Shown: positions 2,623-47,159, numbered from the stretch's first letter. The stretch is 64,000 nt of DNA from Escherichia phage DK-13 (MT611523.1), one strand, 5' to 3'. Notes: a model not told the origin generated them from the sequence alone. Made by a program: numbers and translations.

Positions 2623-3272
2623 AACTTACACCCTTTAACAGTCTCGATGAACAATTTACGGGCTTCAAGAGAATCGATATTTAAGATTTTCTTATAAGCA
2701 TTTAGTTTAGTTGAATACTTTTCCCAAACCAAGTCGTTAGTCTGTTCATCATGTTGGTCTATTATACCTAAAAATGAATCAAGCAAACAAAACGTTTCAA
2801 ATGAAATAACATTCGATTGGAGAAGTTTGAAAATATAACTTGTATTCACTTTAGTATTATACTCGAAAATCTCTTGGAGCGATTTGACTTCGACTTTCTT
2901 ACTGAAGTAATAGATGTTCTTTATATCATCTTCGTATACTTGTCTAATTCTTTTAAGTCGGCCAATGTATTCTCTATAAAATATCAGAGCATCGGCATCA
3001 CTTATATCGCCTATCCATGCATCCTGGTTCGCAACCAGGTTTGACATGAATATTAACGTTAATTCTTTAAGAGTGTACTTATCGCTAAGCTTTTCGAAAA
3101 AATACTTATCGCGACGTTTTTGATAAGCACTATCGGAGATTCGCATGGTCCAGTTATATTTGATAATATCATAACGACCCGAAAAATGCTGTTTGATGGA
3201 TAAGTACAGTTGGTATACTGATTTACCATTTATATATCGGTTGTTATTTGGAGGCATGCGAATCGTAATCAT
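2619..3272 (-). CDS. 59: helicase loader gp59
   Basis: 217 aa; sequence closely resembles T4 gp59 as recalled (MI.IRMP...YI.GKSVY.LYL.IKQH..G.YD.IKYNW.MR.SD.AYQKRRDKYFF.KLS.KY.LKEL); synteny. Confidence 0.93.
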   Translation of the reverse strand: MITIRMPPNNNRYINGKSVYQLYLSIKQHFSGRYDIIKYNWTMRISDSAYQKRRDKYFFEKLSDKYTLKELTLIFMSNLVANQDAWIGDISDADALIFYREYIGRLKRIRQVYEDDIKNIYYFSKKVEVKSLQEIFEYNTKVNTSYIFKLLQSNVISFETFCLLDSFLGIIDQHDEQTNDLVWEKYSTKLNAYKKILNIDSLEARKLFIETVKGCKF

Positions 3273-43352: not shown

Positions 43353-43544
43353 TTATACAACGAAGATAGCTTTATCACCATTTGCATCAGTCACTTCATA
43401 AGTGTCTTCATGATACAATGGAATAATCCAGGTAACACCATCATCAGCGATAACATGGATTGCTTCTTGGTCTTGCGACACGATTTCATATTCTTCAAAA
43501 ATCTGGAAGACGGAAATCTTAGAGCCCGTACACATTGCACTCAT
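43353..43544 (-). CDS. hypothetical protein (63 aa)
   Basis: ATG ORF. Confidence 0.4.
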   Translation of the reverse strand: MSAMCTGSKISVFQIFEEYEIVSQDQEAIHVIADDGVTWIIPLYHEDTYEVTDANGDKAIFVV

Positions 43545-43740
43545 ATTGTTCCCTTCTTTTAATCAGTTGGCGATGTGCCTTTTTAAGTTTACGAATCTGA
43601 CGTTTAGTCGGTCGAGCAACGTAAGCTTGAGTAGTTACTCGTCCAAAAACTCCATACTTGGGAGACGGAGTATCAATAAAGACTTCCCATTGACAAGAGT
43701 AACTATATATTGCTTTAGAGAATTGGGTCAAAACAAACAT
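43519..43740 (-). CDS. hypothetical basic protein (73 aa)
   Basis: ATG ORF; basic C-terminus. Confidence 0.4.
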   Translation of the reverse strand: MFVLTQFSKAIYSYSCQWEVFIDTPSPKYGVFGRVTTQAYVARPTKRQIRKLKKAHRQLIKRREQYECNVYGL

Positions 43741-43741
43741 A

Positions 43742-44095
43742 TTAACCTCGCTTCATGAAGGCATTAAAAATCTGGTCGTCAACAGACTGTTCTTGAGCTT
43801 TGACCCAAGCTCCTTCCAGAATGTCATTCGCTTCAGTAGATATCATGACCCCAATTTCAGGGTTTCCTGTTATCCATGCTGCACAATCGCGCACATTCTT
43901 TTTATCAAATGGGTAGCCGCGAGTATCTTCATAAGGTCCATTCATTACCATAAATGAGCGAGCCTTTATGATAACATCATCTTTAACGATAATATAACCA
44001 ATCGCCTGATTAAACCGAGGCTCACGGAATTCATAATGAGCATTACCGTCATTATTGCTCGCTAGTTCAAAATTCAGAAAATTATAATAACTCAT
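43742..44095 (-). CDS. hypothetical protein (117 aa) ending in VDDQIFNAFMKRG
   Basis: ATG ORF; last 12 codons encoded by a 37-bp sequence repeated at the end of the next gene. Confidence 0.5.
   Translation of the reverse strand: MSYYNFLNFELASNNDGNAHYEFREPRFNQAIGYIIVKDDVIIKARSFMVMNGPYEDTRGYPFDKKNVRDCAAWITGNPEIGVMISTEANDILEGAWVKAQEQSVDDQIFNAFMKRG
43747..43783. repeat. 37-bp direct repeat, copy 1
   Basis: ctcgcttcatgaaggcattaaaaatctggtcgtcaac, identical to 44102..44138. Confidence 0.7.
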
Positions 44096-44096
44096 A

Positions 44097-44534
44097 CTAA
44101 TCTCGCTTCATGAAGGCATTAAAAATCTGGTCGTCAACTGAATATACAGGGGTTTCCAGAATTTTCAAAAGACTGTTTTTGATGTACTTACCCGGGATAC
44201 CCATATTAACAATACTGTCATTCAATTCATTGTCAGGGTTGATGTCTTTAAATTCAAACCCGTCAAACTCAACCTTGTCAGGAATACCATCAGCGAAAAA
44301 ATAAACCAATTGGTGCATTGTATTGCACGAAAATAATTTGGACTTGACCGCAATAAGTTCTTTCCAATGGTTTAATTCTTTGTTAAGAAGCTTATGAGCA
44401 AACGTAATTCTATCATCACTATCAACAAGAAAATAACCCAGGTATTGAATGTCGTCGCTCCAAAACACCCGGTATGCCTGTGCATTTGGATTTTTACAGC
44501 GAAGTTTTTTGATAACTAAATTTCTGTTAATCAT
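44097..44534 (-). CDS. hypothetical protein (145 aa) ending in VDDQIFNAFMKRD
   Basis: track ORF 44097..44621; start moved to ATG 44534 with AGGTGA SD directly after sp stop. Confidence 0.45.
   Translation of the reverse strand: MINRNLVIKKLRCKNPNAQAYRVFWSDDIQYLGYFLVDSDDRITFAHKLLNKELNHWKELIAVKSKLFSCNTMHQLVYFFADGIPDKVEFDGFEFKDINPDNELNDSIVNMGIPGKYIKNSLLKILETPVYSVDDQIFNAFMKRD
44102..44138. repeat. 37-bp direct repeat, copy 2
   Basis: identical to 43747..43783. Confidence 0.7.
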
Positions 44535-44535
44535 T

Positions 44536-44829
44536 TTATTCACCTGTAACCCATTGAACAATTTTGCTATTGTCAAATGAAGCATCGCAATACAGAACAT
44601 AGTTATACTGCATAACGTCACCAGAAGTCAATTTGTCAGATACTTCTTTAACCATATCAGGGCGGTCACGTTTAGTTATGTTCATAATATCAGCATAAAT
44701 CTGATGTTCAACATCAGTCTGGTCGGCAGTCATAGACCACTCACAAAGGTCTTTATCAAGTCCAGCAGTAACTGGAGCTGTACCACATGATGCTACGGTA
44801 AGAATTGCCGCGATTAATAACTTTTTCAT
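44536..44829 (-). CDS. sp: periplasmic superinfection-exclusion protein Sp (spackle)-like
   Basis: 97 aa with N-terminal signal peptide MKKLLIAAILTVASCGTAP; same length and position (between 61 and 41) as T4 sp. Confidence 0.55.
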   Translation of the reverse strand: MKKLLIAAILTVASCGTAPVTAGLDKDLCEWSMTADQTDVEHQIYADIMNITKRDRPDMVKEVSDKLTSGDVMQYNYVLYCDASFDNSKIVQWVTGE

Positions 44830-44886: not shown

Positions 44887-45126
44887 CTATTTTAATGCAT
44901 CTTCCAGATAAATTTTGCGGAATTTGCGTTTTGTCTGACGAATCTGACGCTTGGTAGGTTTCACAGGAAATTCGAAGAACTCTACGTATTCTTGTTCATA
45001 ATCATTGTGGCCGACTGAAAGAACTAGTTCCCAGCTGCTTACGGTGCGTTGGATAAACATATTATGCTTACCAAAAGATTTATTCCAAAAAGAACTAGGG
45101 GTAGGTTTCATTAATGCGATATTCAT
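44887..45126 (-). CDS. hypothetical protein (79 aa)
   Basis: ATG ORF; basic C-terminal tail. Confidence 0.4.
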   Translation of the reverse strand: MNIALMKPTPSSFWNKSFGKHNMFIQRTVSSWELVLSVGHNDYEQEYVEFFEFPVKPTKRQIRQTKRKFRKIYLEDALK

Positions 45127-45330
45127 TTAAATTTCCTCAATGCGGGCATCATATTCAAAAACTTTATTGTCATTAACAAAGGCTTTAACCAGCGCATTAT
45201 TCACTTCTGCATACTGCACTGTAACCCATTCAATCATATTTTTGTCACTAACATCCAGCGCGGTTTCTTTGGTAAACATATTACCGTTTTCAAACCAACC
45301 AATAAATACTACGTTCTCTAATTTATACAT
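45127..45330 (-). CDS. dmd: Dmd-like antitoxin (discriminator of mRNA degradation)
   Basis: 67 aa; pattern V.F.GWF.N..MFTKE...W.T.QYAEVN.ALVKAF..D.KV matches my recollection of T4 Dmd; position near gene 41. Confidence 0.5.
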   Translation of the reverse strand: MYKLENVVFIGWFENGNMFTKETALDVSDKNMIEWVTVQYAEVNNALVKAFVNDNKVFEYDARIEEI

Positions 45331-45648
45331 TTAGATTTCCTCGCAGAAGGCCCAGGCAGCGTGATAAACTGTTGCGCCTTTAGTATCATTTAAACAAACC
45401 ACGTCAACCGGTGCAATCACACGATAAAGACGGGGTTCTCCTCCATATGAGCGAGCTGCTCTTCCTGCATAGATACGTGCCAAACCAATATCTTCAGTAA
45501 AAAACACACGCCCTAAATTTTTCTTACGCCCAACTTCTGACAGAACACCAGTTGCATCAGGAGGGCAAAGCATATTTTGGATTCCAGCATTAGAGCTTGA
45601 CCCATGATAATAAACTTTGTATTCTGCCTTGCAATCAATGGTTTTCAT
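45331..45648 (-). CDS. hypothetical protein (105 aa) with PARP-like NAD-binding signature
   Basis: YYHGSSSNAGIQNMLCPPDATG...GRVFFTEDIGLARIYA resembles the H-G-S and Y-F-A-D blocks of H-Y-E-class ADP-ribosyltransferases; ATG with leader/SD. Confidence 0.5.
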   Translation of the reverse strand: MKTIDCKAEYKVYYHGSSSNAGIQNMLCPPDATGVLSEVGRKKNLGRVFFTEDIGLARIYAGRAARSYGGEPRLYRVIAPVDVVCLNDTKGATVYHAAWAFCEEI

Positions 45649-45685
45649 TTTATTCTCCAGTAGTTGATAGGGTCATTATAACATA

Positions 45686-45710
45686 AGAAAAAGGGGCTGT
45701 AAGCCCCTTT
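45686..45710 (-). terminator. rho-independent terminator after gene 41
   Basis: minus strand AGGGGC-UUACA-GCCCCU followed by UUUUUCUU. Confidence 0.55.
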
Positions 45711-45719
45711 TAAAATATT

Positions 45720-47159
45720 TTAAAATTTCATTTGAGCAGCAAGGTCGTCCAGGTCGCTCCTGTTGACCCTGGTTTGTCGATTCATTTCAGCCTGGCGATT
45801 CATCTCACCGGTGGCTTCTTTAACTGTAGGGCCTTGTTTAGGAGCCGAATCATCATCAACCTCATACCAGCGCTGATTACCTTTCTTAACACCCATCTTG
45901 AATTTATTATAGTAGTTCTTATCACCATAACGAGACTTAAGCTGTTTGATTAACTGCAGCCCCATTTGAGCGAATTCTTCGGTCTCAACAACACCCAACA
46001 TAAAGTCAGCTGTATGAGCAATACCAAAGGATTCTGCGATGTCAGCCATATCAATCTCAGCTGCAACGTTCGCGCCCCTGGTTGTCTGCGCTGCAGTCCA
46101 CAGGACCACATTTTTCTCGACTGCCAGACCACGAAGTTCTTCTGCAACCATCTTAATCAGACCGTAACTATTTTCGGTAAACGTTTTCAGTCTTGAGCTT
46201 GCACAGATTGCCAGGTAGTCAACAATAATCACATCTGGTACAAACCCTTGCTTCAGCTTGTACTCGTTCAGTAATGCACGGAAGGTGTCCGCATGAGCAC
46301 CGCCAGTTGGATATTGTTTTATCTTCAGAGTCCCAAGAGTCCCGGAAGCACGCCATTTTTCCATCTTAGCTTTATATTCCGCCCATGACACATGACCTTC
46401 ATCAATATCATCCAGAGATACATCCAGCAAGTTGGCATCAATACGTTTGGCACATACTTCTTCAGCCATTTCCATGCTTATATAAAGCACATTATGACCA
46501 GTCTGAAGATAGTCAGCGGCTAACGAACAAAGTCCAAGGGATTTGCCGACGTTCGTCCCGGCCAGTAAAACGTTCTCTGTACCGTACTCAACCCCACCCT
46601 TTGTGATTTTATTCAGGATGTTAATACGGAACGGAACCTTCTTCGATTTGTTCAGATAAGTCTGGAATCGAGCTTCGTAATCGTTTAACCAGTCATGGCC
46701 CAGAGCGGAGTCAAAACAGATAGACAATGCATCGCGCATGATGTCGGGGATAGCACCAATATCCGGGATTCGTTTATCACGTTTATCTTTAGGAAGTTCG
46801 GCATTACTCTGGATTTCGATAATCCTGGATGTGGCATTGAACATCGCAGACTTCTGTACATACTTCTCGGTTTCTTTAACCAACCAGTCCTGGTCTTCTG
46901 GAGTATCGGCCAGGACTCCTAAGAGTTTCTTTGTGCCTTCATATTCGACTTCAGAAAGGTCAGAACTGTCGAGCGCGATATCAAGTGCAGTCTTAGTTGG
47001 TACCGCTTGATATTCTTTTACGTGTTCGTTAATCGTATTAAAAAGGGTCTTTGCAGGACCCTTTTCAAAATATGTGTTATTCAGATATGGCCAGACTTTA
47101 ACAAAATATTCCTTGTTAAAGAGTAGCTGGGATAAAATAGTTTCTACCACTTCCACCAC
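45720..47159 (-). CDS. 41: replicative DNA helicase gp41 (DnaB-like)
   Basis: 479 aa; N-terminus MVE...LS.L.F...YF.KVWPY; Walker A GTNVGKS; resembles T4 gp41; track start is GTG. Confidence 0.93.
   Translation of the reverse strand: MVEVVETILSQLLFNKEYFVKVWPYLNNTYFEKGPAKTLFNTINEHVKEYQAVPTKTALDIALDSSDLSEVEYEGTKKLLGVLADTPEDQDWLVKETEKYVQKSAMFNATSRIIEIQSNAELPKDKRDKRIPDIGAIPDIMRDALSICFDSALGHDWLNDYEARFQTYLNKSKKVPFRINILNKITKGGVEYGTENVLLAGTNVGKSLGLCSLAADYLQTGHNVLYISMEMAEEVCAKRIDANLLDVSLDDIDEGHVSWAEYKAKMEKWRASGTLGTLKIKQYPTGGAHADTFRALLNEYKLKQGFVPDVIIVDYLAICASSRLKTFTENSYGLIKMVAEELRGLAVEKNVVLWTAAQTTRGANVAAEIDMADIAESFGIAHTADFMLGVVETEEFAQMGLQLIKQLKSRYGDKNYYNKFKMGVKKGNQRWYEVDDDSAPKQGPTVKEATGEMNRQAEMNRQTRVNRSDLDDLAAQMKF

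Follow-up and report, generated by a model that had tools for sequence, protein, structure and literature searches.

Several phage-encoded ADP-ribosyltransferases (ARTs) have been described from computational surveys, and in one of these (Iyer, Burroughs, Anantharaman and Aravind 2022, PMC9503650) an ART predicted in Escherichia, Shigella and Salmonella phages, where its gene adjoins dmd, was read as a toxin that Dmd neutralises. The p0068-like ARTs of the same survey are among the most frequent viral ARTs and were placed in the H-Y-[EDQ] clade (PMC9503650); the name 'p0068' is not used in the work on polyvalent proteins (PMC5512222). Among characterised ARTs, Arr has the catalytic triad H19-Y49-D84 (PMC8120803), of which D84 is 100% conserved in a DPN[VL] motif (PMC6092378), and in the H-H-h type represented by Tpt1 the phosphate of the substrate is the nucleophile and the enzyme is active without a canonical acid (PMC8120803). 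For phage T4 it has been reported that an early promoter immediately preceding dmd drives an operon of two genes, dmd and tifA (61.4) (Srikant et al. 2022, PMC9391042), and the region was considered a possible 'anti-TA island' (TA, toxin-antitoxin; dmd, tifA, adfA) whose other genes are attractive candidates. The present work concerns an open reading frame (ORF) of 105 amino acids (aa) located between the replicative helicase gene gp41 and dmd in Escherichia phage DK-13 (MT611523.1), a stretch of 64,000 nucleotides (nt) of which was analysed and is referred to as the window. Our best explanation, held with modest confidence, is that this gene encodes an early-expressed, host-directed minimal ART. 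As the family has probably already been predicted to be an ART in its position beside Dmd (Iyer et al. 2022), the novelty of this assignment is modest. A literature search for experimental work on the gene in T4-like, RB69 and BASEL phages found none, and a HIDEN-SEQ preprint covering T4, Bas37 and Bas54 does not mention it.

The gene, referred to below as the window ART, is as follows.

45331 to 45648, minus strand: 105-aa minimal ART-fold ORF with an ATG start, belonging to phrog_2110 and orthologous to RB69 ORF040c

An original prediction, made by a model from the sequence, had proposed an ORF of this length here with a PARP-like signature; the ORF is present on the minus strand and the peptide that was quoted occurs exactly in its translation. 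Escherichia phage pEC-M719-6WT.2 matches the window at 99% identity, with VR20 and SP18 also close, and in the records of all three phages the product is labelled 'hypothetical protein'. The RB69 orthologue is 85% identical to the window ART.

The assignment of this protein to the ARTs is based on several kinds of comparison. In a structural model, the split beta-sheet of the ART fold is present with all six of its core strands. A Foldseek search of a library of viral models retrieved two family members, then a protein named 'Ms Rifampin ADP-ribosyl transferase' (E 2.4e-7) and then ART-PolyVal proteins. A profile of the family, compared with 1.84 billion representatives, recovered 244 proteins, many of them large multidomain proteins in which the unit is internal or C-terminal, and several of these fused units exceed the cut-off of Pfam Arr-ms (27.5-31.5 bits vs 25). 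Two alignments are used throughout, viz. one of 40 T4-like family members and one of 52 sequences which includes the distant fused domains (the broad family). The profile of the 52 sequences, when searched against all PDB sequences, matches Arr only (2HW2/9IAF, E 5.5e-4; Arr-2, E 0.029), and a profile of the T4-like members only gives no match in Pfam, NCBIfam or PDB sequences. Individually, 26 of the 52 broad-family members match Arr-ms at E <= 0.01 (best 1.2e-10), and solo phage proteins 46-54% identical to the window ART carry a precomputed PF12120 assignment. In the hidden Markov model (HMM) alignment H15 falls on Arr H19, and V48-F49-F50-T51 fall on I-Y49-I-T of Arr. As the structure-library, deep-profile and bridging matches agree with each other, the family is homologous to Pfam Arr-ms by way of intermediate sequences and forms an Arr-related phage branch. 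However, the window ART itself shows no match to Arr-ms even at E <= 1, whereas its relatives pass the threshold, and due to this it belongs to a related branch and is not a member by Pfam's criterion.

This relationship should not be taken to mean that the protein is a true Arr, which would inactivate rifamycin-like small molecules and so protect the host RNA polymerase needed by the phage. Arr is the sole sequence-level relative in the PDB and is known to modify a hydroxyl of a small molecule (PMC8120803), and a few GenBank depositors have labelled family members 'putative ADP-ribosyl transferase' or, in keeping with such a function, 'rifampin ADP-ribosyl transferase'. However, not only does the window ART miss Arr-ms, but its relatives cover only positions 1-67 of the 99 in that model, and the match stops before the DPN[VL] motif with the catalytic D84 (PMC6092378); further, the position of D84 is, by extrapolation, hydrophobic, and the 105-aa protein is ~40 residues shorter than Arr. 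True viral Arr proteins are also listed by Iyer et al. separately from this family, in Microbacterium and Gordonia (actinobacterial) and in Sinorhizobium phages (PMC9503650). An Arr function in the strict sense is thus very improbable.

The family to which the window ART belongs is widespread. phrog_2110, whose function is unknown, matches the protein over its full length (E 1.3e-58), and tblastn detects the gene in 609 phage records, with identities of 35-100% (Escherichia 215, Klebsiella 116, Acinetobacter 68, Aeromonas 62, Enterobacter 29, Vibrio 14, and others by host); a search for plasmid homologues found none. The length of the family members is uniform (95-112 aa), the same ~95-aa unit is a discrete module in the large fusion proteins, and the model holds the whole core; based on these three facts the protein is complete, and the earlier suggestion that it might be truncated is not upheld. 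A copy in RB43 (L055, match 3001-3246) aligns to residues 24-105 only, its ORF of ~80 aa lacking the H15-G16 strand, and this copy is probably truncated or decaying, or has a mis-assembled start.

The motif named in the original prediction is more than a chance resemblance, and the residues that would line the NAD pocket are conserved. In the 40-sequence alignment, H15, G16, P30, R41, N44, L45, F49, T51, D53, L56, A57, Y60, A61, R63, G70, G91 and A92 are invariant, and in the 52-sequence alignment H15, G16, A57 and Y60 remain so, while F49, T51, E38, R41 and P29-P30 are each found in at least 90% of the sequences. In both alignments the invariant H15-G16 is followed by S or T, forming the strand-1 H-G-[ST] motif which contacts NAD, and the strand-2 aromatic-x-[ST] motif is present as F49 (50 of 52 sequences, with Tyr in the other two) and T51 (51 of 52). 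Y60, a second aromatic residue, lies 11 residues past F49, a spacing equal to that of the nicotinamide-flanking tyrosines in diphtheria toxin (Y54/Y65) and PARP1. Due to this spacing, the block-by-block parallel with PARP that was drawn in the original prediction is geometrically apt, although the class assignment made from it is not. With respect to the four blocks themselves, H-G-S, F-F-T-x-D and the P-P pair are conserved in the 40 sequences, whereas 'N-x-A-G-I' (residues 20-24) and '[DE]-A' are variable. Between strands 1 and 2 lies a conserved polar cluster, S37-E38-x-G40-R41-K42-K43-N44, in which E38 (98%) is the sole acid conserved family-wide, and R41, K42 and K43 together with R47 and R63 make up a conserved basic cluster. 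In comparisons between pairs of genomes, the ART is 83-90% identical, the adjacent essential gp41 69-81% and the diverged Dmd 57%. A sequence conservation stronger than that of gp41 is unusual for an accessory gene and suggests a conserved substrate.

The timing of expression can be predicted from the surroundings of the gene, which include the following features.

45720 to 47159, minus strand: gp41 replicative helicase, the upstream neighbour of the ART gene, marking the insertion point relative to T4 (ORF call and annotation in near-identical phages)
45689 to 45711, minus strand: G+C hairpin resembling a terminator, followed by a T run, immediately behind the gp41 stop and overlapping the -35 (stem of 10 pairs, 5 of them G-C, with a loop of 3; by consensus match only)
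45675 to 45703, minus strand: promoter-like site of the sigma-70 / T4-early type, CTTACA-17 nt-TG-TATAAT (10/12, extended -10; consensus match)
45655 to 45658, minus strand: Shine-Dalgarno GGAG, 6 nt before the ATG, read from the sequence (minus strand ...CTGGAGAATAAAATG)
45127 to 45330, minus strand: dmd, antitoxin against RnlA/LsoA (Pfam PF17587 Dmd, E 1.1e-20)
44887 to 45126, minus strand: TifA (gp61.4)-like gene, DUF7279, 79 aa, third cistron of the early unit (PF23945, E 8.7e-20)
44536 to 44829, minus strand: Spackle (PF25676, E 4e-43)

The dmd-like and sp-like neighbours named in the original prediction are thus Dmd and Spackle, and its statement that T4 has no gene of this size between dmd and gene 41 agrees with the T4 record, in which gp41 is followed by 58 nt and then by dmd. 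In comparison to T4, the ART gene is therefore an insertion, as was also proposed, in a locus rich in counter-defence genes, with Dmd, the TifA-like gene, Spackle and two AdfA-tailed ORFs beside it (PMC9391042). The gap of 71 nt between gp41 and the ART gene holds the hairpin, the promoter match, which is the top-scoring match of the sigma-70 type in the region, and the GGAG. When the gap is aligned with its T4 counterpart, each column of the promoter match corresponds to one of the T4 early promoter that drives dmd-tifA (GTTTACA-17-TG-TATAGT), which indicates that the ART gene was inserted between the early promoter and dmd and became the first cistron of the early unit. The ATG of dmd abuts the ART stop with a spacing of 0 nt and no promoter in between, so that dmd would be co-transcribed with the ART, and the ATG of the TifA-like gene in turn directly follows the dmd stop. 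From this arrangement, the ART gene would be the first cistron of the dmd-tifA early operon. The arrangement upstream of the gene is also seen elsewhere in the family: promoter matches of at least 10/12 within 120 nt upstream of the ART are found in 28% of 68 loci vs 4% of control windows, and the distance from the end of the -10 box to the ATG is 24-30 nt in the Escherichia, Klebsiella, Acinetobacter and Aeromonas phage lineages. The sequence evidence thus points to probable expression from the outset of infection, alongside known anti-defence genes.

The adjacency to dmd is also the basis of the published computational reading (Iyer et al. 2022), in which the ART is the toxin of a phage type II TA pair and Dmd its antitoxin. 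In the window the two genes are adjacent at 0 nt and would be co-transcribed, in RB69 they overlap by 4 nt, and many solo ARTs are toxins. However, if the two genes formed an obligate pair then they should travel together, and this is not observed. Of the 68 loci, no more than 11 have a Dmd-like ORF at a distance of up to 3 kb from the ART (iterative HMM search), and the ORFs immediately downstream of the ART fall into 27 unrelated clusters, which include Dmd, a Cys-rich peptide of 41-46 aa, lipoproteins, a membrane peptide of 55-60 aa (Klebsiella-type phages) and others, or there is nothing within 200 nt. The host ranges of the two genes are largely disjoint, with the ART common in the Klebsiella, Acinetobacter, Aeromonas and Vibrio phage records counted above and Dmd present in 797 phage records, nearly all of phages of Escherichia, Shigella and Yersinia; most of these phages, T4 and several hundred others, carry no ART. 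In Klebsiella Slopekvirus the ART is present at a different locus, near RNA ligase 2, and in Acinetobacter Lazarusvirus it is followed by ORFs of 45 and 40 aa. A conserved partner (antitoxin, macrodomain, ARH or NADAR) was looked for beside the ART in the lineages lacking Dmd and none was found, the 149 ORFs there showing 23 scattered families and ~125 having no Pfam family. Further, Dmd has a proven role of its own against RnlA/LsoA (PMC9391042), a toxin-first gene order is unusual for type II systems, and the adjacency is more simply accounted for if the ART gene entered the locus downstream of the early promoter and upstream of dmd. These observations argue against an obligate ART-Dmd pair, and the reading of the ART as a toxin held in check by Dmd is quite improbable, though less so than a true Arr.

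Some observations on the position following the ART may be recorded here. In four loci from Enterobacter/Pectobacterium-type phages (L008, L017, L018 and L019) the place of Dmd is taken by an acidic peptide of 41-46 aa with four Cys (CxxC...CxxC), which may be a small zinc-ribbon protein. In VR20- and VR25-like phages (L004 3532-3873 and L024 3492-3824) a second, longer Dmd-like ORF of ~110 aa directly follows dmd; the two ORFs are detected by jackhmmer (E 2.6e-14 and 5.9e-14), while their Pfam Dmd match (E 1.7e-3) is below threshold, and from their sequences they look like a tandem diverged duplicate of Dmd. A Pfam scan of the window ORFs showed no second ART-like gene adjoining dmd.

If, as we favour, the protein is a minimal ART, then the make-up of its active site bears upon the kind of chemistry it could perform. 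Of the Arr triad, the His is present, the Tyr is replaced by Phe, and no equivalent of D84 is seen. Alignments to Arr, including those made via intermediate sequences, all end at Arr residues 82-90, and D84, when extrapolated two residues past the alignment, would correspond to L86 of the window ART (M, L or I in 40 of the 40 T4-like sequences), a placement that is uncertain. The nearest acids, D82 and D88, lack family-wide conservation, and the strand G91-[AT]-[TS]-V-Y is without an acid. By its sequence the resulting configuration, H-F-(hydrophobic), resembles the H-H-h of Tpt1 more closely than the H-Y-E of PARP and diphtheria toxin, so that the H-Y-E or PARP-like class named in the original prediction gives way to an Arr/Tpt1-like one. 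In such a site, E38 and R41 would be the residues most likely to contribute further to catalysis or to the binding of a substrate. Because position two is Phe and a canonical third acid is lacking, which places the protein on the Tpt1/Arr side, and because of the basic cluster, the nucleophile would, by analogy, be no less likely to be a phosphate or hydroxyl of RNA, of DNA or of a nucleotide than a side chain of a protein; the cluster and the active site together point to a phosphate- or hydroxyl-bearing and possibly non-protein substrate.

Other clues to function come from the proteins in which the domain is fused to virion-associated or injected-effector modules. These proteins are 1,492-3,924 aa in length, whereas the window copy is a solo gene, and the fusion partners are as follows.

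P0136 (3,924 aa): minor tail protein
P0153: lambda-type portal with a 2H/Acb1-like phosphoesterase
P0173: CHAP
P0220: LPD23
Five proteins: ART-PolyVal
P0154: NUDIX
Other fusions: GNAT and Toprim

The fusions are polyvalent proteins, which are thought to be delivered with the phage DNA (PMC5512222). The 2H and NUDIX fusions weakly echo, by analogy, the association of Tpt1 with 2H and Nudix, polyvalent proteins being mixtures of unrelated domains. In a metagenomic T4-like contig (L070 2980-5354; SRR33780589), a solo relative of 117 aa which is positive for Arr-ms lies in a same-strand block with NADAR and Acb2/Tad1-hairpin genes, near RNA ligase and topoisomerase genes; the block looks like an anti-defence gene cluster, and it constitutes a second association of ART relatives with counter-defence folds.

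When these results are brought together, the mechanism that we envisage is as follows. A complete stand-alone ART domain of ~95 core residues, from a phage branch related to Arr, would be made in the first minutes of infection; its pocket being formed by H15-G16-[ST] (strand 1), F49-x-T51 (strand 2) and Y60, it would bind NAD+ and transfer ADP-ribose to a conserved host molecule, and this modification may help in the takeover of the host or disarm a host defence, with Dmd presumably not being its obligate antitoxin. A bolder form of this proposal is that the protein is possibly the smallest working ART known, in which a ~95-residue core with a non-canonical active site (H15, F49 and Y60, supplemented by E38 and R41 from the connector of strands 1 and 2) ADP-ribosylates a phosphate or hydroxyl that belongs to a conserved nucleic acid or messenger nucleotide and not to a protein, and that, being made first from the anti-toxin operon, it disarms RNA-targeting or NAD-signalling defences across many Gram-negative hosts; this we offer as a speculation with a rather small chance of being right.

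A number of points weigh against the explanation of an early-expressed, host-directed ART. Searched alone, the window ART has no match in Pfam, NCBIfam or PDB sequences, and Foldseek, a check proposed with the original prediction, was positive only against the viral models, as noted above, the search against the PDB giving no significant match (best Arr-2 at E 0.83). The strand-2 Tyr of the H-Y-[EDQ] clade is Phe in 40 of the 40 T4-like and 50 of the 52 broad-family sequences, and no Glu, Asp or Gln is conserved at the start of strand 5, no column in residues 78-98 being more than 52% acidic in the broad family. ADP-ribosyl transfer and NAD+ hydrolysis by the protein are predictions, the class of target is drawn from analogy and residue chemistry only, and the promoter is a consensus match from which transcription is only predicted. 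Recombination between phages could account for part of the conservation of the gene, and outside the Escherichia-phage group the argument from neighbourhood is weak, ~125 of the 149 neighbouring ORFs being without a known family. Lastly, Phe in place of Tyr or His together with the lack of a conserved acid would also suit a binding-only protein or a plain NADase. In such a case, the protein would have an NAD pocket without carrying out transfer, and it would be a sponge for NAD-derived immune signals or for NAD+ itself, or a simple NAD+ glycohydrolase. The very small size of the protein and its strictly conserved pocket residues fit ligand binding, and the relative in the metagenomic contig adjoins an Acb2/Tad1-type sponge gene and a NADAR gene. 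However, ARTs of the Tpt1 type (H-H-h) are active without the canonical acid (PMC8120803), the conserved E38, R41 and basic cluster lie outside the nicotinamide pocket and suggest a second substrate, and in the polyvalent proteins the domain sits with other enzymes. We consider a non-transferring protein of this kind unlikely, yet the least unlikely of the alternatives to a transferring, host-directed ART.

The remainder of the locus shows further variation. All neighbours of the ART gene share its strand, with uvsX, a head-assembly chaperone (gp40-like) and gp41 on the upstream side and, on the downstream side, Dmd, the DUF7279 protein, Spackle, two ORFs with an AdfA C-terminal tail and the gp61 primase. 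The TifA-like protein and RB69 gp61.4 share 48% identity and have the basic PTKRQIRQxKRKFRK cluster in common. The two AdfA-tailed ORFs (44097-44621 and 43742-44095, both minus strand) are in tandem where T4 has 61.2/adfA, and have only their last 13-16 residues (SVDDQIFNAFMKR[GD]) in common with RB69 gp61.2/AdfA, their bodies showing no BLASTP similarity; they may represent a conserved C-terminal tail on interchangeable bodies. For the first of these (174 aa), the listed GTG start overlaps the Spackle gene and the true start is probably internal. A 73-aa ORF (43519-43740, minus strand) carries a basic motif, RPTKRQIRKLKKAHRQ, which resembles the central cluster of the TifA-like protein (BLASTP E 7e-5 over 20 residues), and it may be a second, diverged paralogue of the TifA type. 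In RB69 an extra 124-aa ORF without a Pfam family, ORF041c (L073 3525-3899), lies between gp41 and the ART gene and has its own promoter-like site after gp41, so that genes evidently insert with particular ease into the gp41-dmd gap, a hot spot in this respect.

T4-like phages are the mainstay of both coliphage biology and phage therapy, and the gene, which is present in >600 sequenced phages including RB69, heads an operon of two proven anti-toxin factors. If active, its product would join Alt, ModA and ModB as a fourth kind of ART in the T-even phages, one belonging to a different clade, and would probably lead to a host target or a chemistry of counter-defence that is new. Two readings are also corrected here, viz. 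the PARP-like assignment and the published pairing of ART and Dmd as toxin and antitoxin. Its strong conservation, its atypical active site and the RB69 orthologue make the gene a good and cheap experimental target, for which residues H15, E38, R41, F49 and Y60 and RB69 ORF040c provide handles.

With respect to the known systems, the description of the p0068-like family (Iyer et al. 2022, PMC9503650) fits the window ART with its place beside Dmd, and the two families may be the same; as published, that family is H-Y-[EDQ] and a Dmd-neutralised toxin, whereas the window family is H-F, without a conserved canonical acid and without an obligate link to Dmd. Tpt1/KptA consists of two lobes, of which the C-terminal one binds NAD, while the N-terminal winged-helix lobe binds RNA and carries a catalytic R-H-R-R tetrad (PMC8120803), whereas the window ART is a single lobe of 105 aa, and no sequence similarity between the two was found in the sequence searches. 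AcrIF11 (6KYF), from a different phage group, is H-H-D with a catalytic D115, modifies N250 of Cas8f (PMC8120803) and shows no sequence similarity to the window ART. Arr (PF12120; 2HW2, 9IAF, 9IBA), a cellular or integron resistance gene of 143 aa, differs from the predicted phage early gene of 105 aa in having Tyr49 in place of Phe49 and in lacking the conserved S-E-x-G-R-K-K-N insert, and the match between them covers the first two thirds of the model, ending before Asp84/DPN and the C-terminal part. Lastly, the ART-PolyVal domains (Iyer et al. 2017, PMC5512222) make up a family of their own, of the H-Y-D type, which occurs in the same giant virion-associated proteins and often in the same polypeptide as the domain studied here; the window ART is a solo gene expressed from a predicted promoter and not a packaged fusion, but the logic of early delivery is common to both.
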